Assembly: GCA_965204375.1 (NCBI GenBank)
Contig: OZ241986.1
Span: forward strand, 320,001-384,000
Length of the DNA stretch: 64,000 nt
Source of the DNA: Candidatus Latescibacterota bacterium
GTDB lineage: Bacteria > Latescibacterota > UBA2968
Direction of reading: 5' to 3'
Shown here: positions 1 through 62,099 of the stretch, piece after piece
How positions within the stretch are numbered: position 1 is the stretch's first letter
Layout: each line of letters starts with the position of its first letter
The notes under the pieces: generated by a model
Database searches by the model: none
What the model saw: only the letters and a program-made list of their open reading frames with translations
Told to the model about the DNA's origin: nothing
Translations under genes and position numbers: made by a program

Positions 1-351
1 TCCCTACTAAATTCTTCTCTGGAATTATTTCAGCACGAGCTTGAACTCAAATATACCATGTTGCGGTATCTCGTCTGGCTGATTCCCACAATGGGGTTTA
101 TTGGCACGGTTGTGGGGATCGCCTTTGCGCTGGATTACGCGGCGAGTATTGAAAATCCCCAGGATCCGACACTGCTGGCGGAGATCACTGGACGATTGGG
201 CGTTGCGTTTTATACGACTTTACTCGCTCTGATTCAATCGGCACTGTTGGTCTTTGCACTGCATCTCGCGCAAGGTAGAGAAGAGATGGCCTTGAATCAA
301 TCAGGCCAGTACTGTTTGGATAATTTAATTAACCGACTTTATGAAAAATAG
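1..351 (+). CDS. MotA/TolQ/ExbB proton-channel family protein (5'-truncated by window edge)
   Basis: Frame open from base 1; LIPTMGFIGTVVGI and LGVAFYTTLLAL match the MotA/ExbB TM2-TM3 signature. Confidence 0.8.
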   Translation, partial: SLLNSSLELFQHELELKYTMLRYLVWLIPTMGFIGTVVGIAFALDYAASIENPQDPTLLAEITGRLGVAFYTTLLALIQSALLVFALHLAQGREEMALNQSGQYCLDNLINRLYEK

Positions 352-363
352 GAGGGTAGTGTT

Positions 364-1014
364 ATGCCTGTTTATCGCGGACCCGATGGCAAGATTATTG
401 AAGAGAAAACGAATAAAGGGGAAGATGTGACCCAGCAGACTGATAGGGCACAAAGGCCGATGCCACCGGCACCACCGGGCGGCGGTCAAGGTGCTGGTGA
501 TGGGCGTTTGGATGCACCTACTCAGAAGATGGATGCGAGTGGTTCTTCGTCTCCTGCAATCTCTGAAGAAAAGACCCGGGTTGTAGGAGGCCGTCGCAGG
601 CAGGAAGATCAGCAGCGTCTGGAAGAACGCGTTGAGAAAGCCGATGGTATGGATGATCCGGTTGTGGGATGGTTGGTTATTGTCGAAGGACCTGGAAAAG
701 GGCGGGCCATGCAATTGGGTTATGGTTCTAATTCGATTGGGCGTGGGGAAACTGATCGCATCAATCTCAATTTCGGTGATGATCAAATTTCGCGTGGCGG
801 ACATGCCGTTGTGACCTACGATCCCCGTGGCAGGAAGTTTTACGTGCAGCACGGCGGAGGTACCAACCTGACCTACCTCAATGACCAACCCGTGCTCATT
901 CCGATTGAACTACCCGTGCTGAGTCATATTAGCATCGGCAATACGGTTCTACGATTTGTGCCTTTGTGCGGCGATGCATTTGATTGGCAGGATATAGAAG
1001 AGAGTCAGGAATAG
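364..1014 (+). CDS. FHA domain protein (disordered N-terminus, C-terminal FHA)
   Basis: PVVGWLV..G..G, SIGR, ISRGGHA, GTNLTYLN FHA motifs; AGGAGG RBS. Confidence 0.9.
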   Translation: MPVYRGPDGKIIEEKTNKGEDVTQQTDRAQRPMPPAPPGGGQGAGDGRLDAPTQKMDASGSSSPAISEEKTRVVGGRRRQEDQQRLEERVEKADGMDDPVVGWLVIVEGPGKGRAMQLGYGSNSIGRGETDRINLNFGDDQISRGGHAVVTYDPRGRKFYVQHGGGTNLTYLNDQPVLIPIELPVLSHISIGNTVLRFVPLCGDAFDWQDIEESQE

Positions 1015-1188
1015 CGATTGTCATTGCGGTTCCTGGTACCCGTATAGAGTTACTACGGGATTTGGTTGAGTCGCCACGCATGCTTAAGGCAGGGCATAGA
1101 CATTACGACGTCAATAATCCAGTGGTTTTGGTTATCATTTTTTTTACGGACCAGCCAGTCATAAAAATACATTGTCAGGAGAAATGCT

Positions 1189-2715
1189 ATGAACGAAGCA
1201 CAACATCCCCTCAACGCTCTGCCCCAGGGCCACCGGCTCTATGAATACGAACTGGTACGCGTGCTGGGCTTTGGGGGATTTGGCATGACCTATCTCGGCT
1301 TTGACCACAACCTGGACAAAGCCGTTGCGATCAAGGAATATCTCCCATCCGATATTGCCACTCGTACAGGCGATAATAGCGTTGCTCCGCAAGCCAGCCA
1401 GTTTCGCGATGATTTTGAGTGGGGATTGGATCGTTTCTTGGATGAAGCGCGTGCCTTAGCCCGGTTCGATCATCGCCACATTATTAAGGTGCATCGTTTC
1501 TTTGAAGCACATGGTACGGCGTATATTGTGATGGAATATGCTGAAGGCGAGACTTTATCGGCGTTTTTGGAACGCAAAGGGACGTTGAAAGAATCTGAAC
1601 TCAAAGCCATTCTGTATCCGCTTCTCGATGGTCTGGAGGTGGTGCATCGGGCTGATTTTTTGCATCGGGATATCAAGCCTGGCAATATCATCATTCGGGA
1701 TGAGGATAATTCGCCAGTGTTGTTGGACTTTGGTTCAGCACGTCAGGCGATGGGAGCGAAGAGCCGTTCAGTTACGTCGATCATCACGCCGGGATATGCG
1801 CCAATAGAGCAGTATTCGAGTCGGGGAGATCAAGGTCCCTGGACGGACATTTATGCGTTGGGGGGAGCGTGCTACCGCGCATTGACGGATGAGGTTCCGG
1901 ATGATGCGACAGATCGTATGCGAGATGATCCCTTGATTCCAGTATCTGAGCGGTGCGCGGATCAAGCGAGTGCTGGATTTCTTTCGGCTATAGATTGGGC
2001 GTTGACAGTGGATGAAAGGGATCGTCCGCAAAGTATTGCAGAATGGCGTGCTGAGTTGAAGGAGGATTTAGCGGAAGCACCGGGGACAGAGAACATCCAG
2101 CCGCCAGTTACGGCATCTGCAACCGCACCCATAGAAGGTGGCTCTGACGACGCGCAGGCCCGATACACAGCAGTCCAGAGCAATTCCCAACCAGCACAGA
2201 TAAAGGTCCGCGCTGACGACGTGAGTCGCTTGAACAAGTGGTTTCTATGGTTTTGGATCGGCCTTTTAGCCGGCATTCCGCTCTCGGTAATCATACTCGG
2301 CTTCATAGCCATTATCGTTAGCCTCGTATGCGGTTGCTGTATCTTGCACAAACTGTGGTGCCTCATCCCTGCTCACGAAGCAAAAACAACACCGGGCAAA
2401 GCTATTGGGTTTCTTTTTATCCCATATTTTAACTTATACTGGAACTTCATCGCCATTTATGGTCTCGCCCAGGCCCTCAATAGTCAGATCAGGCAACGCG
2501 GAATAAAGAACAAAGGGGTTGGTGAAGGACTTAGTTTGATCTACTGTATCCTCGCCATAAGTGGCTTCCCCATACTTTTGCTGTCCGGTGCGTCTGAGTT
2601 CGGGATCGGGCTTACCATAATCATTATAATTACTGATTTTGTGTTCGGCATAATCATTCTCAAGCAAATGAAGAACACTGGTATCGCATTGATTGAAAAT
2701 CGTGCGGTAGAATAA
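1189..2715 (+). CDS. Ser/Thr protein kinase K1 with C-terminal multi-TM (DUF4328-like) module
   Basis: LGFGGFG, VAIKE, HRDIKPGN, DFG, TPGYAPIEQY; C-terminal hydrophobic helices with TPGKAIGFLFIPYFNLYW. Confidence 0.92.
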   Translation: MNEAQHPLNALPQGHRLYEYELVRVLGFGGFGMTYLGFDHNLDKAVAIKEYLPSDIATRTGDNSVAPQASQFRDDFEWGLDRFLDEARALARFDHRHIIKVHRFFEAHGTAYIVMEYAEGETLSAFLERKGTLKESELKAILYPLLDGLEVVHRADFLHRDIKPGNIIIRDEDNSPVLLDFGSARQAMGAKSRSVTSIITPGYAPIEQYSSRGDQGPWTDIYALGGACYRALTDEVPDDATDRMRDDPLIPVSERCADQASAGFLSAIDWALTVDERDRPQSIAEWRAELKEDLAEAPGTENIQPPVTASATAPIEGGSDDAQARYTAVQSNSQPAQIKVRADDVSRLNKWFLWFWIGLLAGIPLSVIILGFIAIIVSLVCGCCILHKLWCLIPAHEAKTTPGKAIGFLFIPYFNLYWNFIAIYGLAQALNSQIRQRGIKNKGVGEGLSLIYCILAISGFPILLLSGASEFGIGLTIIIIITDFVFGIIILKQMKNTGIALIENRAVE

Positions 2716-2748
2716 GCTGATTCTTGCGATAATCGCGGGATGCTATGA
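2711..2748 (+). repeat. Conserved inter-kinase leader motif, copy 1 (AATAAGCTGATTCTTGCGATAATCGCGGGATGCTATGA)
   Basis: Similar to copies at 3140-3174 and 7598-7649. Confidence 0.8.
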
Positions 2749-2895
2749 TCGGAGAACAATGATGGCAAGACGATGCGGATGAGACGTTGTTTGAATCGCT
2801 ACATCCGAAAGTTATACTGAGTCTTGATGTAAAAATCCATGACACGACATCCCCCTAAAAAGCTGGCAACATAAATAGAATCAGGAGAGCGCGTT

Positions 2896-3145
2896 ATGAA
2901 GCCAGGTGAAATAATTTTTGAAGGTCGAAGGCGGCTACAACGTCAGGGCTTTAGGCTACGGGATTTTTGCCCAGAGGGAAGATTGGGCCGACTTGAGGGC
3001 AATGGTAAAGGACGCGGCACTTTGACACTTTGATGAGGACGATATACCCAAAGTAATTGTCGCTGAGCATTTTGGACTAACTCCAGATGAAGTTCATCGT
3101 ACTGACAAGCTCAACGTTACGGTGTCCGATTCTAAAAAGAGCTGA
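2896..3145 (+). pseudogene. Decayed HicB-like antitoxin fused by deletion to a HicA-like toxin tail
   Basis: AGGAG RBS + MKPGEIIF; after a frameshift near 2920 reads VEGGYNVRALGYGIFAQREDWADLRAMVKDAAL*HFDEDDIPKVI (TGA 3023-3025), then VAEHFGLTPDEV. Confidence 0.7.
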
Positions 3146-3174
3146 TTTCTGAAATAATCGGAAATGCTATGAAC
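3140..3174 (+). repeat. Conserved inter-kinase leader motif, copy 2 (includes K2 start)
   Basis: AGCTGATTTCTGAAATAATCGGAAATGCTATGAAC. Confidence 0.8.
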
Positions 3175-4488
3175 AACGCACAACAACCTCTTAACGCTCT
3201 GCCCCAAGGCCACCGGCTCCAGGAATACGAACTGGTACGCGTGCTGGGCTTTGGGGGATTTGGCATGACCTATCTCGGCTTTGACCACAACCTGAACAAA
3301 GCCGTTGCGATCAAGGAGTACCTACCATCCGATATTGCCACCCGTACAGGCGATAACAGCGTCGCTCCACAGGCCAGCCAGTTTCAAAGTGATTTTGAGT
3401 GGGGGCTGGATCGTTTTTTAGATGAGGCACGCGCCTTAGCCCGGTTCGATCATCGCCACATTATTAAAGTGTATCGTTTCTTTGAGGCACATGGTACGGC
3501 GTATATCGTGATGGAATATGCTGAGGGTGAGACCTTGTCGGCGTTTCTTGAACGCAAAGGGACATTGAAGGAAGCTGAACTCAAAGTTATTTTGTATCCG
3601 CTTCTCGATGGTCTGGAGGTAGTGCATGGGGCAGATTTTTTGCATCGGGATATAAAGCCGGGCAATATCATCATTCGAGATGAGGACAATTCGCCCGTGT
3701 TGTTGGACTTTGGTTCAGCACGTCAGGCAATCGGTGCAAGGAGCCGTTCAATTACGTCAATCATCACGCCGGGTTATGCGCCAATAGAGCAGTATTCGAG
3801 TCGGGGAGATCAAGGCCCTTGGACGGATATCTATGCGTTGGGAGGCGTATGTTATCGCGCATTGACTGGTCAAGTGCCGGATGATGCGACAGATCGTATG
3901 CGGAATGATCCTTTGATTTCGGTGTCTGAGTGCTGTGCGGGTCAAGCGAGCGATGATTTTCTATCGGCGATAGATTGGGCTTTGGCAGTGGATGAAGAGG
4001 ATCGCCCACAAAGTATTACAGAATGGCGTGCTAAGTTGGGGGATGATTTGACAAAACAGGAGCCTGTGCCAGTATCGCAACAAAGGCGTCACCAGGACGA
4101 AAAGACCGTTGATGAGTTACCAAATCATCCGTCTGTAGAGGATGTACAAAAAATGTTATTGTCAGCAGGGTTAGCTGATGCAGCCAGGCAATTAGGGGTA
4201 TCTGCTAGAGAACTGGATTTTATAAGAAAAAAATATGGCCTTCAGTTGCCCAAACTCGTAGCGCAAAAAAAGACAGAAGGAGGAAATATTATGGCGGGAC
4301 AAGGTTCGGGCGGCAATGTTCTTGCTGCTTTGTGTAGCTTTTTTATTCCGGGTTTGGGCCAGTTGCTTCAGGGGCGTTTGCTCATTGCCCTTTTTCAATT
4401 TTTTTTGGCGGCCATCCTGTGGTTTATCTGGATGGGCTGGTTGATCCACCTGTGGTCTGTTCTGAACGCCGCTCGGTGGAGACCATGA
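3169..4488 (+). CDS. Ser/Thr protein kinase K2 with Fis-like HTH and C-terminal TM2-like membrane module
   Basis: Intact kinase motifs; DAARQLGVSARELDFIRKKYGL; tail SFFIPGLGQLLQGR. Confidence 0.92.
   Translation: MNNAQQPLNALPQGHRLQEYELVRVLGFGGFGMTYLGFDHNLNKAVAIKEYLPSDIATRTGDNSVAPQASQFQSDFEWGLDRFLDEARALARFDHRHIIKVYRFFEAHGTAYIVMEYAEGETLSAFLERKGTLKEAELKVILYPLLDGLEVVHGADFLHRDIKPGNIIIRDEDNSPVLLDFGSARQAIGARSRSITSIITPGYAPIEQYSSRGDQGPWTDIYALGGVCYRALTGQVPDDATDRMRNDPLISVSECCAGQASDDFLSAIDWALAVDEEDRPQSITEWRAKLGDDLTKQEPVPVSQQRRHQDEKTVDELPNHPSVEDVQKMLLSAGLADAARQLGVSARELDFIRKKYGLQLPKLVAQKKTEGGNIMAGQGSGGNVLAALCSFFIPGLGQLLQGRLLIALFQFFLAAILWFIWMGWLIHLWSVLNAARWRP
4291..4488 (+). CDS. Possible in-frame nested small membrane protein (65 aa, TM2-like)
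   Basis: AGGAGGA RBS immediately upstream of in-frame ATG MAGQGSGGNVLAALCSFFIPGLGQ. Confidence 0.5.
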   Translation: MAGQGSGGNVLAALCSFFIPGLGQLLQGRLLIALFQFFLAAILWFIWMGWLIHLWSVLNAARWRP

Positions 4489-4545
4489 TTGCAGGCGTTA
4501 ATACCGACAATCGCGCTCAGATAGAGCACACACAAGAGGAAGTAT

Positions 4546-5736
4546 ATGGATTTGTTAGATGGACGATTTGCCGCGCAGCAAATTCCTGGTGGGCGGGAAT
4601 ATCAGGAGGACGATTACGGCCTGATTGAGCCGGGTGATCCCGATGCTGACGGGAGTGAGGTGTTGTTGATAGCGGATGGGATGGGTGGACATGTCAGCGG
4701 CGATACGGCGAGCAGGACGGTGGTTAAGACCTTTGTGGAGACCTATCACAGCACGGATGGGCCGGTGCCGGATCGTCTGCGTGCCTGTCTCAACGCGGCC
4801 AATGATGCCCTCGCCGAAGCAATAAAAGAAAACCCGGAACTGGAGGGTATGGGATCCACTGTGGTTGCAGCAGTTGTTTCACAACACGGACTCGACTGGA
4901 TCAGTGTAGGCGATTCTCCCTTGTGGTTGTTCCGCGATGGCAAGTTGCGTCGCCTCAATGCCGATCATTCTATGGCGCCTGTGCTTGCGAATCTGGTAGC
5001 AGTTGGGCGCATGACTGAGGAAGAAGCGGCGACGGATCCCAAACGTCATGCCCTGCGCTCGGCGGTTATGGGCGATGAAATTCACCTGATTGATGTCTCA
5101 TCGCAACCTGTTGCGATTCGGAAAAGTGATCGCGTGTTATTGGCGAGTGATGGTTTAATGACACTTGAGGATGAGGAGATTGCAGGTGTTTTACAGAACA
5201 TGAAGGATGCATCCCTATCAGAAGTCGCCGAGGCACTCATCCAGGTGGTGGAAGAGGTCGGGTATCCAAATCAAGATAATACGACCGTGTTGCTCTATAC
5301 TCCGGTGGCGGATTGTGGGATGGAAACTGTTCTGGATGAGACTACACAGAAGCAATTTGACCAGTCTGAGCGACCAAGAAGAAAGAAGGGTTTGTTTTGG
5401 ATATTGTTATGCGGGGCCTTGATCGCTCTTGGACTACTCGCTTATTGGTTCATGTCGCGCACGCCTGACAAAGAGGCAGTGGTTGAAACCACACCGGTAC
5501 AGCAAGCAGAGCCACCTAAACAGGATGTTTCTCCACCCGCTACGAGAACTTCTGATTTGCCAGAGGTGCAACCCGGGAGCAAATTTCCACAGACAGAACG
5601 ACCCGCAAAGGATGCGCCAGCACAACTCGACACAGGCAAAGTGAATGGGGAATCACTAAAGAAAAAAACTGAAGGTGTCTCAGCGAAGCCATCAACACCA
5701 CCCGATACTACATCCCAATCGAAAGGAATGAGGTGA
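4546..5736 (+). CDS. PP2C/PPM-family protein phosphatase with C-terminal TM and Pro-rich tail
   Basis: GGREYQED, ADGMGGH, VGDS, ASDGL, QDNTT; TM LFWILLCGALIALGLLAYWF. Confidence 0.93.
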   Translation: MDLLDGRFAAQQIPGGREYQEDDYGLIEPGDPDADGSEVLLIADGMGGHVSGDTASRTVVKTFVETYHSTDGPVPDRLRACLNAANDALAEAIKENPELEGMGSTVVAAVVSQHGLDWISVGDSPLWLFRDGKLRRLNADHSMAPVLANLVAVGRMTEEEAATDPKRHALRSAVMGDEIHLIDVSSQPVAIRKSDRVLLASDGLMTLEDEEIAGVLQNMKDASLSEVAEALIQVVEEVGYPNQDNTTVLLYTPVADCGMETVLDETTQKQFDQSERPRRKKGLFWILLCGALIALGLLAYWFMSRTPDKEAVVETTPVQQAEPPKQDVSPPATRTSDLPEVQPGSKFPQTERPAKDAPAQLDTGKVNGESLKKKTEGVSAKPSTPPDTTSQSKGMR

Positions 5737-7571
5737 ACGACGCACACCACCGATTGGCACTGCCACAAGGTACTCGCATACAGGACTTTGAATTTCACCG
5801 CGTCTTAGGGCAAGGCGGTTTTGGCATCACCTATCTCGGCTGGAATATGGCACTGGATATTCCTGTGGCGATTAAAGAGTATTTGCCCTCGGACCTTGCG
5901 ACCCGTGAATACGACCTATCGGTGGTGCCGCAGTCATCTCAAGCCGCGTCGGATTTTGAGTGGGGACTGGATCGCTTTATAGATGAAGCGAGAATATTGG
6001 CGCGTTTCCACCATCCAAATATTGTTCGTGTGCATCATTTCTTTCAAGCGCACAGCACGGCGTATATCGTGATGGAATATGCCGAAGGTGAGACCTTGTC
6101 GGCATTTCTCGAACGCAAGGGGACACTGACTGAAACCGAACTCAAAGCCATTCTGTATCCGATTCTCGATGGATTGGAGGTGGTGCATCGGGCTGATTTT
6201 TTGCATCGTGACATCAAGCCGGGGAATATCATCATCCGGGATGGGGACGATTCGCCAGTGTTGTTGGACTTTGGTTCAGCGCGTCAGGCGATCAGTGCAA
6301 GGAGCCGTTCCGTTACGTCGATCATTACGCCGGGTTATGCGCCTATAGAACAGTATTCAAGTCGGGGTGATCAGGGTCCTTGGACGGACATCTATGCGTT
6401 GGGTGGTGTGTGTTATCGTGCATTGACTGGTGAAGTGCCGTATGATGCTACGGATCGTATGCGGAATGATCCACTCATTCCAGTAGTTGAGCGATGTGCA
6501 GACCAAACGAGCGCTGGGTTTCTATCGGCGATAGATTGGGCATTGGCTGTGGATGAGGGTGATCGACCGCAAAGTGTGGGAGCCTGGCGTGTTGCGCTGA
6601 AAAAAGAGACACCGGGCAACATGGATGTAGATACATCAGCTACAACATCTGTAACCGCTCCTCCATCAAAAGTACAGGATCGAAAAAGAGATGATGCCCC
6701 ACCTGTGCATCATCCCACCAAGTCCAAAGGAAAGTTATTTGTTTCGTTTGCCTGCGTGGTTGCTCTGTGGGCTTGTGCTATCTATTATTATCACTATGAA
6801 TATCTCCCCGATCAGCGTCACTGGGAGGAACAGGGAGTAGGCAGGAAATTCAGAGACTGTGCGAAATGTCCGCAGATGGTGGTGGTGTCATCGGAATCAT
6901 TTACGATGGGGTCTCTTAGTGGAGAGGAAGGCAGTAAAAATGATGAGAGTCCCCAGCATGTTGTGCGTATAGATTACAGGTTTGCCGTGGGTATGTATGA
7001 AGTAACCTTTGCTGAGTGGGATGCGTGCGTGTCAGATGGTGGTTGCGGAAGGTATGTTCCTGATGATGAGGGTTGGGGGCGTGGGAATCGTCCGGTAATA
7101 AATGTGAGTTGGGAGGATGCACAGTCTTATGTGCGCTGGTTGTCTGCAAGGACGGGGTATAATTATGGCTTACTGAGTGAGTCAGAATGGGAGTATGTAG
7201 CGCGAGCGGGGACGACGACGGCTTATAGCTGGGGGGATAATATAGGTCGGAGCCGCGCTAATTGTGACGGTTGTGGCAGTCAGTGGGATGGTGAGAAGAC
7301 AGCCTCAACAGGCTCATTTAGTGCCAACACTTGGGGCGTTTACGATATGCACGGGAATGTGTGGGAGTGGGTGGAGGACTGTTGGAACGACAGTTATATA
7401 GACGCACCTTCTGATGGGGCTGCGTGGGAAAGTGGCGATTGTTCTGAGCGCGTGTTGCGTGGCGGTTGCTGGTTCGACAAACCGAGTCTCCTCCGCTCGG
7501 CGGACCGCAGCAGGCTTACCACCGGACGCCGGGGCAGCTTCATCGGTTTTCGAGTTGCCCGGCGTTTTTAA
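5733..7571 (+). CDS. Ser/Thr protein kinase K3 with TM and FGE-sulfatase (C-type lectin fold) domain
   Basis: Kinase motifs; FRDCAKCPQMV, YEVTFAEW, PVINVSW, SEWEYVARAG, YDMHGNVWEW, RVLRGG..W, GFRVAR; GTG start overlaps PP2C stop. Confidence 0.93.
   Translation: MNDAHHRLALPQGTRIQDFEFHRVLGQGGFGITYLGWNMALDIPVAIKEYLPSDLATREYDLSVVPQSSQAASDFEWGLDRFIDEARILARFHHPNIVRVHHFFQAHSTAYIVMEYAEGETLSAFLERKGTLTETELKAILYPILDGLEVVHRADFLHRDIKPGNIIIRDGDDSPVLLDFGSARQAISARSRSVTSIITPGYAPIEQYSSRGDQGPWTDIYALGGVCYRALTGEVPYDATDRMRNDPLIPVVERCADQTSAGFLSAIDWALAVDEGDRPQSVGAWRVALKKETPGNMDVDTSATTSVTAPPSKVQDRKRDDAPPVHHPTKSKGKLFVSFACVVALWACAIYYYHYEYLPDQRHWEEQGVGRKFRDCAKCPQMVVVSSESFTMGSLSGEEGSKNDESPQHVVRIDYRFAVGMYEVTFAEWDACVSDGGCGRYVPDDEGWGRGNRPVINVSWEDAQSYVRWLSARTGYNYGLLSESEWEYVARAGTTTAYSWGDNIGRSRANCDGCGSQWDGEKTASTGSFSANTWGVYDMHGNVWEWVEDCWNDSYIDAPSDGAAWESGDCSERVLRGGCWFDKPSLLRSADRSRLTTGRRGSFIGFRVARRF
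7449..7571 (+). other. Putative DGR variable region at the 3' end of K3
   Basis: NNC codons at positions that are AAC (Asn) in typical CLec template repeats; 16 of 26 codons in 7467-7544 end in C. Confidence 0.55.
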
Positions 7572-7597
7572 CTCTTCCAAATGGTGCCCAATTTTAA

Positions 7598-7649
7598 AAT
7601 AAGCTGATTCTTGAAATAATCGGAAATGCGGAATAATAATGCTATGAAC
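7598..7649 (+). repeat. Conserved inter-kinase leader motif, copy 3 (includes K4 start)
   Basis: AATAAGCTGATTCTTGAAATAATCGGAAATGC..AATGCTATGAAC. Confidence 0.8.
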
Positions 7650-8840
7650 AGTGCCCAACAACCCCTTAATGCTCTACCACAAGGCCACCGGCTCCAGGAA
7701 TATGAACTGGTACGCGTACTCGGATTTGGCGGATTCGGCATGACCTATCTCGGCTTTGACCACAATTTGGACAAAGCCGTGGCCATCAAAGAATACCTGC
7801 CATCTGATATTGCCACCCGTACAGGTGATAACAGCATTGTCCCGCAAGCGAGCCAGTTTCAAGATGATTTTGAGTGGGGATTGGATCGTTTTTTAGATGA
7901 GGCACGCGCCTTAGCCCGGTTCGATCATCGCAACATTATTAAAGTGCATCGTTTCTTTGAGGCACATGGTACGGCGTATATCGTGATGGAATATGCTGAG
8001 GGTGAGACCTTGTCTGCGTATCTTGAACGCAAATGGACATTGAAAGAGGCTGAACTCAAAGTTATTTTGTCTCCAATTCTCGATGGCCTGGAGGTAGTGC
8101 ATGGGGCAGATTTCCTGCATCGAGATATAAAGCCGGGCAATATCATCATTCGAGATGAAGACAATTCGCCAGTGTTGTTGGACTTTGGTTCAGCACGTCA
8201 GGCAATCGGTGCAAGGAGCCGTTCGGTTACGTCGATCATCACGCCGGGTTATGCACCGATAGAACAGTATTCGAGTCGAGGAGATCAAGGACCCTGGACA
8301 GACATCTATGCGTTGGGTGGTGTGTGCTATCGTGCATTGACTGGTGAAGTTCCGGATGATGCGACAGATCGGATGCGTGATGATCCCTTGATTCCGGTGT
8401 CTGAACGATGTGCAGACCAAGCGAGTGTAGGGTTTCTATCGGCGATAGATTGGACATTGGCTGTGGATGAGGCAGACCGTCCGCAGAGTATTGCAGCGTG
8501 GCGTGCAAAGTTGGAAGGTGAGTCGACAGAGCACGAGTTTGTGCCAGTATCGCAGCAAGGGCGTTACCAGAGCGAAAAGACCATTGATGATTTGCCAAAT
8601 CACCCGCCCCTAGAGGATGTGCAAGAAATGCTGTTGTCAGTAGGGTTAATTGATGCAGCCAGGCAATTAGGGGTATCCGTTGGAAAACTAGATTTAATAA
8701 GAAAAAGATATGGCCTTCAGTTGCCCAAACTCAACTATAAAGACGAGAGAAGTCAGAAATCTAAGGCTGTGGAGGTTCTTATGCTGATATTATTAGCGAT
8801 AATAGCGATTATAATTGGATTCGCATTGAGGTTTAAGTAA
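7644..8840 (+). CDS. Ser/Thr protein kinase K4 with Fis-like HTH and single C-terminal TM anchor
   Basis: Kinase motifs; DAARQLGVSVGKLDLIRKRYGL; terminal VLMLILLAIIAIIIGFAL; start set by alignment to K1/K2. Confidence 0.92.
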   Translation: MNSAQQPLNALPQGHRLQEYELVRVLGFGGFGMTYLGFDHNLDKAVAIKEYLPSDIATRTGDNSIVPQASQFQDDFEWGLDRFLDEARALARFDHRNIIKVHRFFEAHGTAYIVMEYAEGETLSAYLERKWTLKEAELKVILSPILDGLEVVHGADFLHRDIKPGNIIIRDEDNSPVLLDFGSARQAIGARSRSVTSIITPGYAPIEQYSSRGDQGPWTDIYALGGVCYRALTGEVPDDATDRMRDDPLIPVSERCADQASVGFLSAIDWTLAVDEADRPQSIAAWRAKLEGESTEHEFVPVSQQGRYQSEKTIDDLPNHPPLEDVQEMLLSVGLIDAARQLGVSVGKLDLIRKRYGLQLPKLNYKDERSQKSKAVEVLMLILLAIIAIIIGFALRFK

Positions 8841-9063
8841 GCGAACTACCCCGGTACTGACCGAGATCAGGTTTGGGGCAGCCACGACGGTTAGAGGCTG
8901 GTAGTTGGATATGATCGCCGCGGTATCATCGGGGTACCTGCCTGATGGGTGGCGTGGAAGAATGCACCTGAAACAGCAGTGTTTTTGCACCATTACGGTG
9001 GGCGGGGGGAGCCGTTTTGGGCAGGAATTGCAAAGTAGGGCAATGCGGTTTGGCTGTGCAGAT

Positions 9064-9134: not shown

Positions 9135-9542
9135 TTATTTTTGAGAAATTGGGGTCAAAATGTATGGATTTGCGATTGTCATTTTGCCGAAACGCTTGAG
9201 GAGTTGGGCTTCGTTATGTTTATCGAGTTTCTCCTCGCGGATCACACGCTGGACAGCCGGTTGCCCCATGCCGGGAATACGAATAGCGAAGAATGGCCAC
9301 AACACTTCGGATTCGTAGCACTTGTCTATATGAGGAAAGTCAATGAGAAGCCGAACATCCTTCTGACGTCGGAAGTCATCAGTGTACTCGAAATGCCACT
9401 TTCCGTCATAGAGAGATAGATACCCTATGTCCAGGTTGCGGTATTGCAAACAAAAGTTGGCTTCCTCGTGTTTCGGAGTTTGAAGTTGCTCCCGGCCATC
9501 TTGTCGGGATAGCATTTTCTTCAAGGCTGAGATAGAAATCAT
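9135..9542 (-). CDS. HipA N-terminal (Couple_hipA / HipS-like) domain protein
   Basis: IGYLS...WHFEY...YESEVLWPFFAIRIP pattern; 9 bp downstream of the HipA-like kinase. Confidence 0.75.
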   Translation of the reverse strand: MISISALKKMLSRQDGREQLQTPKHEEANFCLQYRNLDIGYLSLYDGKWHFEYTDDFRRQKDVRLLIDFPHIDKCYESEVLWPFFAIRIPGMGQPAVQRVIREEKLDKHNEAQLLKRFGKMTIANPYILTPISQK

Positions 9543-9551
9543 AGTGAGTCC

Positions 9552-10583
9552 TTAGGTCAGGGCGTCAGATACCAAATCCAATCGCCATTTCAAGCAGTTC
9601 AGAATCATCTCACGGCGCAAAGGGCTTATGAGTAGGGAGAACTCGTTGTCGAGTGTTTCCTGGACCTGTTGTAAGAGGTTAGGGCGAGAAAAAGAAGCCA
9701 GCACTGAACGGAGGTCGGGATAGGCATGGTGGATTTTCTGAATCAAGGAAAAATGATTGAGGTTGTTTGCGCTATCCCATCCTGTCTTTGGTCGAGAGTT
9801 TTGGACATATCGCTCAAAAAAAGTTTGCAACCTTTTCGGGTCCTGTTTAACAGTTTGAAGGTTGGACTCTGGATAATTCCAGAAAAGTGCCCGTGCGCTG
9901 TCGTAAATCGGAGCAAAGTAAGGCTCGTGGACAGCGTGGGTGTGAACTACGACTCCCCAATTGTAATGGTGTCGATCATTATTACCCACAATGGCGTCAA
10001 AAGCGAGCATCCGAATGTACGCTACCAGAATGGACCTTGCTTGATTGGGAAACTGTGCTTGAATCGCCTCCTTGATGAACTGGAAAGTAAACAGATCCTG
10101 GGTTGCTCCAGCTTGTTCTACCTCCTCTACGAATGCCTTATCTTCCAGGTAACTGGCGAAGATTTCCCCCCCGTGAACGAGGCGTTGCCTGTGCTTGAGA
10201 AAATATCGGCTTAGAAAACGAATCTGACCATGTGCTGATACGAGAGAAGACTCAGCCATTTTCAGGCCGAGTAGCTGACCGATACGTGTAAGCAGGTGCT
10301 CCGTAATAGATTCGTTGGGATACCACTTATGTCCAACCTTAGCAATATATGCAGGCCACTTGCGAGGATTAGTTCGCTTCGCTATTCCGTAAGTATAGGC
10401 ACGTATGAAGTCCTTTGGTGCATCCCCGGCAATGGTTCGGCCCATGACTTTATAATAATACCCCTTGCGAAGAGGAGGCAATACGCCTTGGCGACTGATC
10501 TCAAATCCAGACCAATTGAGCACTTTCTCGCGGGATATCTGCTGCTCCAATAGACCGGAGCGATAGAGGGGACGAATTGGCAC
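9552..10583 (-). CDS. HipA-like (HipA_C / CtkA-type) kinase toxin
   Basis: GDAPK, YIAK, ESITEHL, FDAIVGNNDRHHYNWG, FAPIYDS. Confidence 0.85.
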   Translation of the reverse strand: MPIRPLYRSGLLEQQISREKVLNWSGFEISRQGVLPPLRKGYYYKVMGRTIAGDAPKDFIRAYTYGIAKRTNPRKWPAYIAKVGHKWYPNESITEHLLTRIGQLLGLKMAESSLVSAHGQIRFLSRYFLKHRQRLVHGGEIFASYLEDKAFVEEVEQAGATQDLFTFQFIKEAIQAQFPNQARSILVAYIRMLAFDAIVGNNDRHHYNWGVVVHTHAVHEPYFAPIYDSARALFWNYPESNLQTVKQDPKRLQTFFERYVQNSRPKTGWDSANNLNHFSLIQKIHHAYPDLRSVLASFSRPNLLQQVQETLDNEFSLLISPLRREMILNCLKWRLDLVSDALT

Positions 10584-10756
10584 AGTGGTTAGAAGTTACG
10601 CTTCCATGTTTTTTGCGAAAAAAATAACTTCTCAACTTGTTATTTTTGTTTAAAATCAAACATCTTAGAATCTCAGGCCCAAGTCAAGCTATAAATTTCG
10701 ACGAATGGCTCGGATTGAGGATGTAAATATCAAAGAACGGCCACAATCGTCGCTTG

Positions 10757-11104
10757 CTAAAATAAAAATTCGGGATGTCTTTTTTTGAGACGTAATGTGT
10801 GCTCGGCGACATCGAGATCGTAGTGGGTTTGAAGATTAATCCAGAACTCAGACGTCATGCCAAAGTAGTGACCAAGGCGTAGCGCGATATCGATAGTTAT
10901 TCCATGCCTTCCATGCATGATAGCTTTCAGGTCAGTCTCCGAAACCTTAATCGCTTGGGCAAGGCGGTCCACACTGAGATTTATCGGAATAAGAAATTCA
11001 TCGCGCAGGATTTCACCGGGATGTACAGGCGATAGCCGGTGTCCGGAGACCACATCCGAGAAATCGATCTCTCGTTGATCTAATTTTTCACGTTTGATGG
11101 TCAT
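10757..11104 (-). CDS. higA: HigA-family antitoxin (orphan)
   Basis: PVHPGEILRDEFL, ALRLGHYFGMTSEFWINLQTHYDL; GGAGGT RBS. Confidence 0.88.
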   Translation of the reverse strand: MTIKREKLDQREIDFSDVVSGHRLSPVHPGEILRDEFLIPINLSVDRLAQAIKVSETDLKAIMHGRHGITIDIALRLGHYFGMTSEFWINLQTHYDLDVAEHTLRLKKRHPEFLF

Positions 11105-59884: not shown

Positions 59885-60775
59885 TTAAATGAAAGAGCCT
59901 CGTTTAAGAGCAGCCTGTGGATCATACCACACTGCTTTTACAAAATTCTGTATTTCTCGCACGAATTTCCAAACTATTTTGGCATCTATTGGAAATTGTT
60001 CATGCTGGCGTTTTACTTCGTAATAATTTCCTCTTTTTCCATAAGGAAGTCTCTTTGTTTTTCGCAGCAAAAAAACATTATCAATCTCGGTTAGTCTGCA
60101 ATCTTCAGGCTCCATATCTAAGTATTCCACCAAAGCGTAATATTTCGCAATAGGGCACCCTTGTTTCAATCGGGCGGCTGTACCTGCACATTCTTGAAAC
60201 ATGGTTTTATCATAATTCACTTTGATTTCTGCCGCAAGCACGGCCAAACAAAAACTGCCAGAAGTCGTGTTTTCTACCTCAAAACTTGCACTTGGCGAAA
60301 ATCTATAATGAATTGTTTTGCCAAGTGCGAAATCTTGATCTTTATGCTTTATAACCACTTGGGGCTTTCCCCCCAAATCATTTATACTTGGTGGAACAAA
60401 AGATAGAGATAGAAATGCTGTATGCGGTCCCACTTCTAAATCATACAAAGGCAATCCGTGTAGAATTGAAGGATCTATGACATGGATGAAAAATTCTTCC
60501 AGCACTGAATTATCGAGTTTTAGTTGTCCTTTTTGTCTCTTTATAAATTCAGATCCATGTCCAGTAATCAATTCGACTTCAAGATAATTTTTGTAGTCGT
60601 TTAAAAGGCTAACCATTTCCTCAATTTTCTGTTTACCAGTTGAATTTAAGGTTCCCATACTTGAAATCCAATGCTCGTAAGCTCCATAAGCCTCTTTCAA
60701 TATTGATTTGTCATCAATACATTTTGGATTTCTCAATGCCGCCAACAATTTTTCTCTATGGGGTGTTTTTGCCAT
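59885..60775 (-). CDS. Bpu10I-family type II restriction endonuclease
   Basis: TPHREKL, RQKGQLKLDNSVLEEF, KDQDF, EIKVNYDKTMFQE. Confidence 0.85.
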   Translation of the reverse strand: MAKTPHREKLLAALRNPKCIDDKSILKEAYGAYEHWISSMGTLNSTGKQKIEEMVSLLNDYKNYLEVELITGHGSEFIKRQKGQLKLDNSVLEEFFIHVIDPSILHGLPLYDLEVGPHTAFLSLSFVPPSINDLGGKPQVVIKHKDQDFALGKTIHYRFSPSASFEVENTTSGSFCLAVLAAEIKVNYDKTMFQECAGTAARLKQGCPIAKYYALVEYLDMEPEDCRLTEIDNVFLLRKTKRLPYGKRGNYYEVKRQHEQFPIDAKIVWKFVREIQNFVKAVWYDPQAALKRGSFI

Positions 60776-61988
60776 TTTGAAAAACTTCCTTTGGAAAAAA
60801 TAAAGGAGATGGAAGAACACTGTAAATGTCAGAAATGACATCTTGAATTTCGGGTTTTATTCCGTCTTCAGCTTGTGAAATAGACGCTTTTAGATGCTTA
60901 CGTGCTATCTCTCTCGCTTCAATTTCTTCGGGCGGATTTCGATCTTTTTTGGCAACAATAATATCCTCTTTAATTTTAGCACCAAATCTATTGATAAAAT
61001 GTCTTTCGTAAGTTGCAATATCACAGAAGCCACCTGCTTTCAACATAAGGTCCTTTATGATTAAACCATTGTAAAATGGCACACGTCGTACACGAGATTC
61101 GCGTCCTACGACTAATACGATTATTCCATTTTTTTCTAATGTGTGCCAAAAACTCTGAAGGCTTCGATTCATTTCTAGGCAATATTGTACGACGGTTCTA
61201 AATCGATTGCTTCGATTCTTCCTATTGGAACCAATTTCACTGTGTGCAACTTTTAAGAGATCCCAACCGAGGGTTTCCATCACAGCCCTGTGATTCTGGT
61301 GATAGTTAAATACGTTGATATAAGGCGGGCTGGTTAAAATCAAATTGGCTTTAGATAGTGAATTTTTAGATAAGTATCTTGCATCCCCTAAAAATGCCCG
61401 TATAGGTGCGTCTGTAAATGGTAGACTCAGTGTCGCCTGCTTAATAAAGTTAAAAGACGACATAATGGCCGAATTTAAGTCCTTGTGTTTTCTATTTTCA
61501 GCAGAAAAAATGACATTTAAGGCAATTACCATTTCATCCTTATTTGAGGTCGAAGAGATCAACTCTTTTGAAAAGTCAATCAAATTAGCAAAGCGGATTC
61601 TATATTCGCGACTACAATTTTTGAAAAGTGGCAGACCTCCAAAAGTGTGAAGTAGATCGTGAATTTTCTTCTGTAAGTCACTGATTATCACTTCGCGGTC
61701 TTTGATACATTTATTTGACAAAGAGAAAAATTTTGACATTGCATAAGCTGCTGGATTGATTTCATAGCCATATCCGCTTAGGCCCTTGCGTGCGCAGGCT
61801 TGAAGTACCGTTCCACTACCCGAAAAAGGATCAATTACGGTGAATCCCTTTCTTGAGAATCTATCTATAATATAATCAACAAATTGAGGCGTAAATTGTC
61901 CACGCCAAGTAAATAAATTCGCCCGTTGTTTTTCTTTTACATTCAGTTTATCTTGTTCTAAAATAATTTTACTTTTTGTATTTCCCAT
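60756..61988 (-). CDS. DNA methyltransferase (amino-MTase, probably N4-cytosine)
   Basis: WRGQF, DPFSGSGT, then TSPPY; overlaps the REase start; AT-rich. Confidence 0.88.
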   Translation of the reverse strand: MGNTKSKIILEQDKLNVKEKQRANLFTWRGQFTPQFVDYIIDRFSRKGFTVIDPFSGSGTVLQACARKGLSGYGYEINPAAYAMSKFFSLSNKCIKDREVIISDLQKKIHDLLHTFGGLPLFKNCSREYRIRFANLIDFSKELISSTSNKDEMVIALNVIFSAENRKHKDLNSAIMSSFNFIKQATLSLPFTDAPIRAFLGDARYLSKNSLSKANLILTSPPYINVFNYHQNHRAVMETLGWDLLKVAHSEIGSNRKNRSNRFRTVVQYCLEMNRSLQSFWHTLEKNGIIVLVVGRESRVRRVPFYNGLIIKDLMLKAGGFCDIATYERHFINRFGAKIKEDIIVAKKDRNPPEEIEAREIARKHLKASISQAEDGIKPEIQDVISDIYSVLPSPLFFPKEVFQNGKNTP

Positions 61989-62099
61989 CTTCTTCTCCTA
62001 TGCTTTGCGTAGTATATGGAAATCACGAACAAATATAGTATCCATTTGTTTACCGAGCAAGGGAGAATTTGTTCCTAAATATATTTCTTGGTGCGCCTT

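Follow-up and report, generated by a model that had tools for sequence, protein, structure and literature searches.

A Hanks-type kinase array with variable C-terminal modules at the edge of a conserved envelope operon in a Candidatus Latescibacterota bacterium

In the genome of a Candidatus Latescibacterota bacterium (assembly GCA_965204375.1; one contig, 6.34 Mb, 96% complete), four related Hanks-type kinase genes, K1 to K4, lie close together at the beginning of a 64,000-nucleotide stretch (contig OZ241986.1, positions 320,001 to 384,000, hereafter the window), and each ends in a different C-terminal tail. The question raised by this locus is whether the kinases serve separate purposes or whether one catalytic domain has been fitted with several sensor ends in front of a single machine. 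With a confidence a little better than even, we favour the second answer, in which the four would be a tandem set of receptor kinases, with one or several membrane passes each, that supplies a conserved envelope operon with variable inputs converging on a shared output. Such a ‘variable input, shared output’ arrangement was first put forward from the window alone (hereafter the original prediction), and it is supported because kinase copy number varies, tails differ, kinase and tail trees conflict and the synonymous divergence (dS) of the kinase domains is raised. Fixed copy number or tails among relatives, congruent trees and a misassembled array had been named beforehand as outcomes that speak against it; all were examined, and none was found.

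The seven open reading frames that occupy 1-8840 are all on the + strand, and Pfam supports every assignment. The four co-directional kinases predicted at 1189-8840 are Hanks-type both by their matches to PF00069 (128-138 bits, against a cut-off of 31.7 bits) and by the glycine-rich loop, VAIK lysine, HRDxKPxN and DFG, the catalytic motifs of Hanks kinases, which all four retain in the alignment. That their tails differ was likewise borne out by Pfam and hydropathy. K1 (1189..2715; Pkinase 128.1 bits) ends in a multi-transmembrane helical tail, K2 (3169..4488; 132.9 bits) in a two-helix cytoplasmic module followed by two C-terminal transmembrane helices, K3 (5733..7571; 137.7 bits), a mosaic kinase, in one transmembrane helix and a PvdO-like FGE-fold ectodomain, and K4 (7626/7644..8840; 129.6 bits; the ATG at 7644 is favoured by alignment) in a two-helix module of the K2 type and a single transmembrane helix. 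The catalytic domains had been called near-identical, which holds for K1, K2 and K4 (90% and 92% identity of K1 and K4 to the 294-residue K2 domain) but not for K3 (79%). K1 to K4 are the only copies of this family in the genome, where the next best kinase match is at 34% identity. The 453-base gap between K1 and K2 (2716-3168) contains a broken reading frame with a frameshift and in-frame stops, which we take to resemble a HicB-family antitoxin; within this gap, 103 bases are replaced by 71 others in a contig from another study.

Comparison with the closest relative, genome G012 (locus L043), locates the differences between the two arrays. The two loci are 88% identical in DNA from the MotA-like gene at the window's start through the K1 kinase domain, and homology ends at window nucleotide 2066, the end of that domain, beyond which the window has the multi-transmembrane tail and G012 an ankyrin tail. 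Homology resumes at 3169 and extends through K2, the PP2C phosphatase gene and the K3 kinase (88.9%). The region of K4 (~7577-9044) has no counterpart in G012, where the order is kinase(ankyrin)-K2-PP2C-K3, and the next kilobase is 95.5% identical; K4 is thus a single-gene difference, since it is absent between conserved flanks. This absence, together with the position of the K1 kinase domain in the kinase tree, beside K2 and K4 and not K3, argues against the proposed duplication of a two-kinase unit (A-B-PP2C-A-B). The linker said to be shared by K1 and K3 is a marginal resemblance that consists of 8/19 identities in low-complexity sequence (E 0.02 in a single pairwise BLASTP). The one said to be shared by K2 and K4 is genuine, with 80-85% DNA identity to about nucleotide 1100, after which the two genes diverge; K4 tracks K2 through the helical module, to about residue 363, and then differs. 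These alignments indicate that C-terminal modules are exchanged at two junctions, near residue 293 (the end of the kinase domain) and near residue 363 (the end of the helical module), and that whole kinase genes are gained and lost.

The same conclusion can be approached from the trees. In a kinase tree of 75 family proteins (at least 60% identity), the tail labels need 33 changes, with a minimum of 13 and a mean of 43.5 after shuffling, and kinases of one array that bear different tails sit together, as do the ankyrin, FGE and PDZ+FGE kinases of genome G010. When the same 24 FGE-bearing kinases were placed in both an FGE and a kinase tree, clades of the kinase tree forced on the FGE data cost 214 and 58 log-likelihood units (approximately unbiased (AU) test, p 8e-15 and 3.6e-4) and the FGE clade forced on the kinase data cost 109 (AU p 2e-9), all for clades chosen post hoc. 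Tails would then be partly inherited and often replaced, as judged from these sequences. Synonymous divergence offers a separate view of the kinase domains themselves. Core genes have a dS of 0.10-0.24 against G012, with the exception of the vWA gene, and of 0.09-0.28 against genome G013, so that 13/14 comparisons fall within 0.09-0.28, and the K2 tail, with 0.16 against G012, is similar. In contrast, kinase domains in matching positions have a dS of 0.37-0.66 (G012) and 0.44-0.62 (G013), two to six times that of the flanking genes, from which we infer that positional ‘orthologues’ are not orthologous in their kinase DNA.

K3 provides a case in point within the window. Its first ~300 nucleotides, the N-lobe, have about 60% DNA identity to K1, K2 and K4, and the remaining 550 have 82-92%; the N-lobe has a nonsynonymous divergence (dN) of 0.33 with saturated dS, whereas the C-lobe has a dS of 0.62-0.72, like K1, K2 and K4 among themselves (0.44-0.74). 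The K3 N-lobe falls within a 28-member clade (support of 95 in the SH-like approximate likelihood-ratio test, SH-aLRT), a grouping that the C-lobe data reject (AU p 0.014, post hoc), and N-lobes of this type are found in 14/16 kinases that directly follow a PP2C gene versus 12/43 elsewhere. Kinase-domain DNA itself, then, appears to be reshuffled among paralogues. The longest identical tracts between the window paralogues exceed those of column shuffles only modestly, being reached in 13 to 261 of 2000 shuffles, and were not used as evidence of recent conversion. Selection on the kinase domains is strongly purifying (omega, the dN/dS ratio, 0.06-0.16) and weaker on the K3 linker (0.38) and FGE domain (0.30).

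If the kinases are a changeable layer on a constant machine, their number should vary where that of their partners does not. A search with the MotA-like alignment returned 222 related places in genome contigs; the 80 best were retained and, together with the window's own locus, made up 81 loci that were then searched by tblastn with the window proteins. The MotA-like gene, FHA3 (the soluble FHA protein of the window) and PP2C occur together in 51/81 loci, and among these 51 core loci the MotA-like gene is single in 51/51 and FHA3 in 50/51, while single copies of the small FHA gene of the operon and of the vWA gene are present in 45 and 41 loci, respectively. Kinases, on the other hand, number from none to six: there are none in 1 core locus, one in 22, two in 14, three in 7, four in 4, five in 2 and six in 1. 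The predicted variability of the kinase set on constant partners is therefore what was found. Across 41 genomes, the source genome included, family kinase matches range from 0 to 9, with at least one in 19 genomes and in 11/20 of the other genomes of the genus.

The machine beneath the kinases is more widespread than the genus. The MotA-like protein is 73-98% identical in related loci, and its nearest records are titled as Candidatus Latescibacterota metagenome-assembled genomes; at 49-65% identity it is found in Binatia, Vicinamibacteria, Longimicrobiales, Rhodothermales, Alphaproteobacteria and Parabeggiatoa/Thiomargarita, and in the isolates Halioxenophilus sp. WMMB6 and Nioella ostreopsis Z7-4. 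The suggested link of the array to the upstream proton-channel gene is upheld by this synteny, which is conserved across phyla. Longimicrobiales loci have a reduced form, made up of the MotA-like gene, a gene for a PG-binding/LRR protein and a vWA gene whose transcription is divergent. Between records with Latescibacterota titles and those titled Gammaproteobacteria or Gemmatimonadota, eight loci (L053, L058, L062, L063, L065, L066, L068 and L077, among them a 3.8-Mb chromosome) show 75-81% MotA-like identity, which suggests either transfer of the operon between phyla or, for the short contigs, mislabelled bins.

Among the loci, 124 kinase matches were extracted (101 full length, 98 unique), and 93 tails of at least 25 residues from outside the window were scanned with Pfam. 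They comprise more than 12 classes. FGE-sulfatase (25, one also with PDZ and two also with PEGA) and ankyrin (24) are the most frequent, followed by sub-threshold DUF4328 (5), PEGA alone (4), beta-helix/NosD (4, two with PG_binding_1), Sel1 (2), PG_binding_1 (2, one with LRR) and single cases of low-density lipoprotein (LDL)-receptor class B, TerB+DnaJ and Pyr_redox+Fer4; two tails have weak matches and 22 none. A hydrophobic segment lies 18-69 residues past the kinase domain in 16/26 FGE tails and 14/24 ankyrin tails, and such a transmembrane segment between kinase and module means that most modules are predicted to be periplasmic; in the ankyrin tails the segment is at the C-terminal end in 4 and none reaches the threshold in 6. 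Two genomes have unusual members of the family. G017 (L031-L032) has nine family kinases, seven of them clustered around a decayed core in which the MotA-like gene matches only at residues 179-261 and tblastn finds no vWA gene, and several of its FGE tails have no detectable transmembrane segment. G019 (L034) has two almost identical kinase domains away from the core, one fused to an LDL-receptor class B propeller and the other followed by an 824-residue tail in which Pyr_redox and 4Fe-4S domains occur and which may be a read-through of two genes.

What the tails of the window might bind is best approached through K3, whose tail had been read correctly as a transmembrane helix followed by an FGE domain (FGE-sulfatase, PF03781, 171.9 bits). 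Its closest solved relatives are PvdO (5hha, E 5e-51) and PorK/GldK, true FGEs matching only at ~1e-17 to 1e-13; by these scores, binding is a more likely role for the domain than catalysis. Catalytic FGEs have a pair of catalytic cysteines near the C-terminus, and K3 has a single cysteine in the stretch after RGG. The K1 tail does have the four hydrophobic segments expected of a multi-transmembrane domain, but its match to DUF4328 (PF14219) stays below threshold, at 15.5 bits (E 0.013) against a gathering score of 27.2. It belongs to a family of 11 members, K1 included, in which the five best of the ten others reach 20.9-25.5 bits to DUF4328, and its AlphaFold2 model, a helical bundle with a predicted local distance difference test score (pLDDT) of 69, finds no PDB fold by Foldseek (best E 0.49). 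The helix-turn-helix and TM2 labels given to the K2 and K4 tails were not supported by Pfam: at E<=5 the K4 tail has no match and the K2 tail only DUF6677 (E 0.72). The AlphaFold2 model of the K2 tail, which is 92% identical in G012, contains only two short helices and two transmembrane helices at low confidence (pLDDT 60), too poor for a fold search. Its C-terminal two-transmembrane part recurs just upstream of PP2C in L027, L044, L045 and L120, as a kinase end or a short separate match, and possibly originated as a separate gene for a small membrane protein, later fused to K2.

The kinases form the variable margin of an otherwise conserved operon of 11 genes, whose start lies ~6.7 kb upstream of the window (locus L007); the upstream genes are on the same strand and tightly spaced. 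The FHA, PP2C and MotA_ExbB genes noticed beside the kinases are all real by Pfam. The MotA/TolQ/ExbB-like channel gene reaches the window with its last 116 codons (1..351, +; PF01618 38.5 bits for the fragment and 40.3 bits for the whole gene); it encodes 261 residues (L007:17566-18351) and begins 434 bases before the window. FHA3 (364..1014, +; PF00498 30.6 bits) has a Ser/Thr/Pro-rich N-terminal half and no hydrophobic segment. The PP2C protein (4546..5736, +; PP2C_2 46 bits) is membrane-anchored, with the catalytic domain followed by one transmembrane helix (residues 282-300 by hydropathy) and a Pro/Lys/Thr-rich C-terminal tail, and it matches the NCBIfam Stp1/IreP-type model at E 2.4e-43, below that model's cut-off. 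Promoter-like and terminator-like sites show no excess (11 versus 11.9 and 4 versus 7.8 in shuffles), and the RNA-library contigs that cover 1269-2211 were not taken as proof of transcription.

Upstream, also on the + strand, the operon encodes two proteins, T1 and T2 (565 and 440 residues), in which a Trypsin_2 and an FHA domain are joined, a small FHA protein of 121 residues and a 286-residue vWA protein (L007:16326-17186). By hydropathy, T1 and T2 have a signal-like N-terminus and one transmembrane segment between the domains, with the trypsin domain outside and the FHA domain inside. T2 retains the His, the Asp and the Ser motif GNSGGPL, which is present in 32/44 homologues; T1 is probably catalytically inactive, since an Asn replaces the Asp and the Ser motif is missing. 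Instead of the single FHA relay that had been proposed, the operon has four FHA proteins, and in two of these the FHA domain is joined to a periplasmic protease domain. The vWA protein consists of an N-terminal hydrophobic helix, a coiled coil and the vWA domain (25.7 bits, cut-off 23.8), the last two predicted to be periplasmic. The helix Asp (xLDLx) is present in 78/79 homologues and a D-x-S/T-x-S motif of the metal ion-dependent adhesion site (MIDAS) type in 69/79, and none of the 11 operon proteins matches the ExbD/TolR/MotB family. The dS of this gene is 0.59 against G012 but 0.21 against G013, with neighbours at 0.10-0.24, and the coiled-coil/vWA gene may also have been exchanged between lineages.

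A channel gene of this kind paired with a vWA partner has a precedent in the TolQ-like/‘transpore-helix vWA’ (TPH-vWA) proteins, predicted to form 5:2 motors (Mol Biol Evol 2025, PMC12204202). In the parts of that paper available to us, the likeness extends to an orphan TolQ/MotA-like gene without adjacent TolR/ExbD and a tethered vWA protein with a conserved helix Asp; TPH-vWA genes occur there mostly in heterologous pairs, whereas here there is one in 41/51 loci. The text does not contain ‘kinase’, ‘phosph’ or ‘protease’, so that the phospho-signalling genes, the FHA-linked proteases and the kinase array are absent from it.

From the domain content, the predicted topology, the conserved motifs and synteny, and a kinase number that varies beside constant partners, a mechanism can be proposed. 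Each kinase tail would sense a different periplasmic or membrane cue, and the activated kinases would place phosphothreonine marks on themselves, on the Ser/Thr-rich half of FHA3 or on the motor. The four FHA domains could read these marks and couple them to the motor, predicted to be of the 5:2 proton-driven type and made of the MotA/TolQ-like channel and the Asp-helix vWA partner, and to the protease pair; PP2C would reset the system by reversing the marks.

Several points weigh against this reading of the array as a shared and changing input layer. Phosphorylation of the FHA partners, FHA binding, and motor and protease activity are all deduced from sequence. Topology by hydropathy is crude, and 10/26 FGE tails have no transmembrane segment at the threshold used, and the clades put to the AU test were picked with the trees already in view. 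On the kinase tree, tail labels cluster more than shuffled ones do, so that much of the inheritance is vertical, and the raised dS could stem partly from local mutation or codon effects rather than recombination. The window paralogues, with dS of 0.44-0.74, are not recent, and a metagenome strain from a different study retains the junction from the K1 tail to K2 with 2-4% differences; turnover, as these sequences indicate, is between species and not a rapid switch. Finally, the kinases are not obligately tied to the core machine, since family members occur away from it in G011 (four separate places) and in G019 (the LDL-receptor class B and Pyr_redox fusions) and 8/19 kinase-bearing genomes have no intact MotA-like match (E<=1e-40).

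The last of these points lend themselves to the explanation that survives best after the one we favour, which we nevertheless hold to be unlikely: the four would be ordinary duplicated sensor kinases with separate substrates elsewhere, brought together by duplication in place, and the family members without a core, the genomes without an intact MotA-like gene and a divergence that implies long independent maintenance would all follow from it. Such independence fits poorly with the constancy of the association. The MotA-like gene is present in 11/41 genomes and all 11 also have a family kinase; at least one kinase lies within 10 kb in 50/51 core loci; and the association spans many phyla. Moreover, the K3 start overlaps the PP2C stop, and 14/16 of the kinases that directly follow PP2C share one N-lobe type.

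We consider it doubtful that the locus is a conflict or defence system, a Zorya-like envelope defence against phages or competitors in which the ectodomains would be non-self sensors and the proteases effectors. It would account for the patchy distribution (9/20 genomes of the same genus), the high MotA-like identity across phyla that suggests transfer, the toxin-antitoxin genes that adjoin the array, and an FGE ectodomain that evolves faster than the kinase (omega 0.30 versus 0.09); there is also a weak ZorA match, and the protease domain resembles defence-linked proteases. However, PADLOC finds no system, kinase and protease matching as generic domains only, and the ZorA model reaches 18.1 bits (E 2.7e-4) with no other Zor match, so that the combination sought for Zorya (ZorA with its long tail, ZorB, and ZorC/D or ZorE) is absent. 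The operon encodes no nuclease, NTPase or pore effector, and the paralogues are old. Nor does the genome contain a template of the diversity-generating retroelement type for the K3 3′ end, which besides itself has only paralogous matches of 71-73% and two of 50-52 bases at 79-80%.

The original prediction had compared the parts of the locus to the threonine-phosphorylation switch of the Pseudomonas aeruginosa type VI secretion system (T6SS; PpkA/PppA/Fha1/TagR), and the domain list (kinase, PP2C, FHA, FGE fold and vWA) is indeed the same, but membership, or descent as a remnant, is very improbable given that PF05943 (VipB/TssC) has no match in this 96%-complete, single-contig genome while control genomes match, that the TagH/Fha1-type model TIGR03354, with a cut-off of 120 bits, reaches only 36.1 and 22.6, and that a kinase bears the FGE domain whereas the vWA domain belongs to a separate Asp-helix protein. 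The resemblance is one of logic, not membership. In the H1-T6SS pathway, as described in the portion of the source available to us (PMC13713981), a periplasmic cue leads through phosphothreonine to FHA-dependent assembly, by way of a membrane Hanks kinase, a PP2C phosphatase, an FHA reader and a periplasmic FGE-fold and vWA domain; residues 127-359 of TagR belong to the FGE-sulfatase superfamily, and TagR is proposed there to bind PpkA. Here the FGE domain is part of the kinase and not a separate TagR, the motor partner and not the kinase has the vWA domain, two of the four FHA proteins are linked to proteases, the kinases form an array and there is no TssC.

That the array is a collapsed or chimeric repeat may be dismissed almost entirely: although short-read contigs from the samples break within every kinase domain, and only there, contigs from two samples of one study span all the unique junctions with 0 differences (1806/1864-3252, 3786-6204, 4442-6279, 6251/6468-7911 and 8195-9000), a contig from a different study covers 1764-3404, from the K1 tail to the start of K2, the source genome is a single contig, the paralogues are 8-25% apart in DNA and could thus be resolved, and comparable clustered arrays of two to seven kinases occur in several independently assembled genomes. 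Stretches of the locus that lack cover in the runs X4 and X6 were given no interpretation.

Parts of this organization are known from other systems. A bacterial serine/threonine kinase (STK) atlas (bioRxiv 10.1101/2025.01.12.632604) describes a ‘Proteo1’ family with alternative TM-only, FGE-sulfatase and DUF4384 architectures, to which the present kinases can be likened by architecture only, as one family with alternative C-terminal transmembrane or FGE-sulfatase ends. The atlas is a family-level catalogue; the text available to us has 0 occurrences of ‘tandem’, ‘ankyrin’, ‘MotA’ and ‘vWA’ and reports no tail exchange between close relatives. Kaur et al. (2020), in what we consulted, treat domains of the FGE type as binding modules that vary, and discuss a triad of kinase, PP2C and vWA in actinobacteria. 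In a full-text search of the literature, neither the operon nor kinase arrays of this sort were found described, and the supplements of PMC12204202 and of the STK atlas might list some of the genes. What is new here is the dynamics of the array. The Agl-Glt gliding machinery of Myxococcus also combines a TolQR-like motor with an FHA protein, GltG. It thus resembles the present operon in having a TolQ/MotA-family motor and inner-membrane proteins with cytoplasmic FHA domains; the NCBIfam GltG/GltJ matches here, in contrast, are weak (E 4e-3 to 1e-8, far below cut-offs), and no Glt outer-membrane or adhesin genes are present.

In plants and fungi, clusters of receptor-kinase and NLR genes combine a conserved signalling domain with assorted, faster-evolving binding domains (LRR, lectin-like, ankyrin) and vary in copy number. 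The likeness to the present array is an analogy only, without a claim to an immune role: the locus is a bacterial operon, and the Pkinase fold is all the homology that the two have in common. The analogy leads to a bolder proposal, to which we assign a low probability: the array might be the counterpart of such clustered eukaryotic repertoires, a recombining receptor-kinase library whose periplasmic ankyrin, lectin-like FGE, LRR, Sel1, PEGA and propeller ectodomains would recognise molecules of hosts, phages or competitors, all triggering one proton-driven vWA motor with tethered proteases, which would capture and cut the bound target. In animal-associated communities, gene conversion and the exchange of tails would tune such a repertoire.

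The DNA around the array has features of its own. Directly after K4, on the - strand, lies a split HipA-like pair (Couple_hipA at 9135-9542 and HipA_C at 9552-10583), followed by a gene with a weak helix-turn-helix match (10757-11104). In the close relative L044 the flanks are conserved and most of 9135-11104 has no match; the array thus seems to end in an insertion hotspot. Farther along, a low-GC island at 59885-61988 (GC 0.37 in 60001-62000) carries genes for a DNA methylase and for a restriction endonuclease of the Bpu10I type (216 bits).

The usual view of bacterial Hanks kinases is of fixed sensors, one gene each; at this locus, one catalytic domain is reused with many sensor ends, and tail exchange is traceable between sister genomes to the breakpoint. 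The array sits on a conserved but unstudied machine, a predicted proton motor with a vWA head and FHA-tethered proteases. DNA of the carrier genomes is found in runs labelled as sponge and coral metagenomes; runs X7-X23, which contain small shares of the locus, were left out of account for habitat. This occurrence, together with ankyrin, LRR, Sel1 and LDL-receptor-type tails predicted to be periplasmic, makes the array a candidate for host-microbe recognition. Tests are feasible, since two cultured bacteria, Halioxenophilus sp. WMMB6 and Nioella ostreopsis Z7-4, carry the core. The family amounts to a natural experiment with variable inputs and a fixed output, and may help to find the function of the motor and the cues of the kinases.

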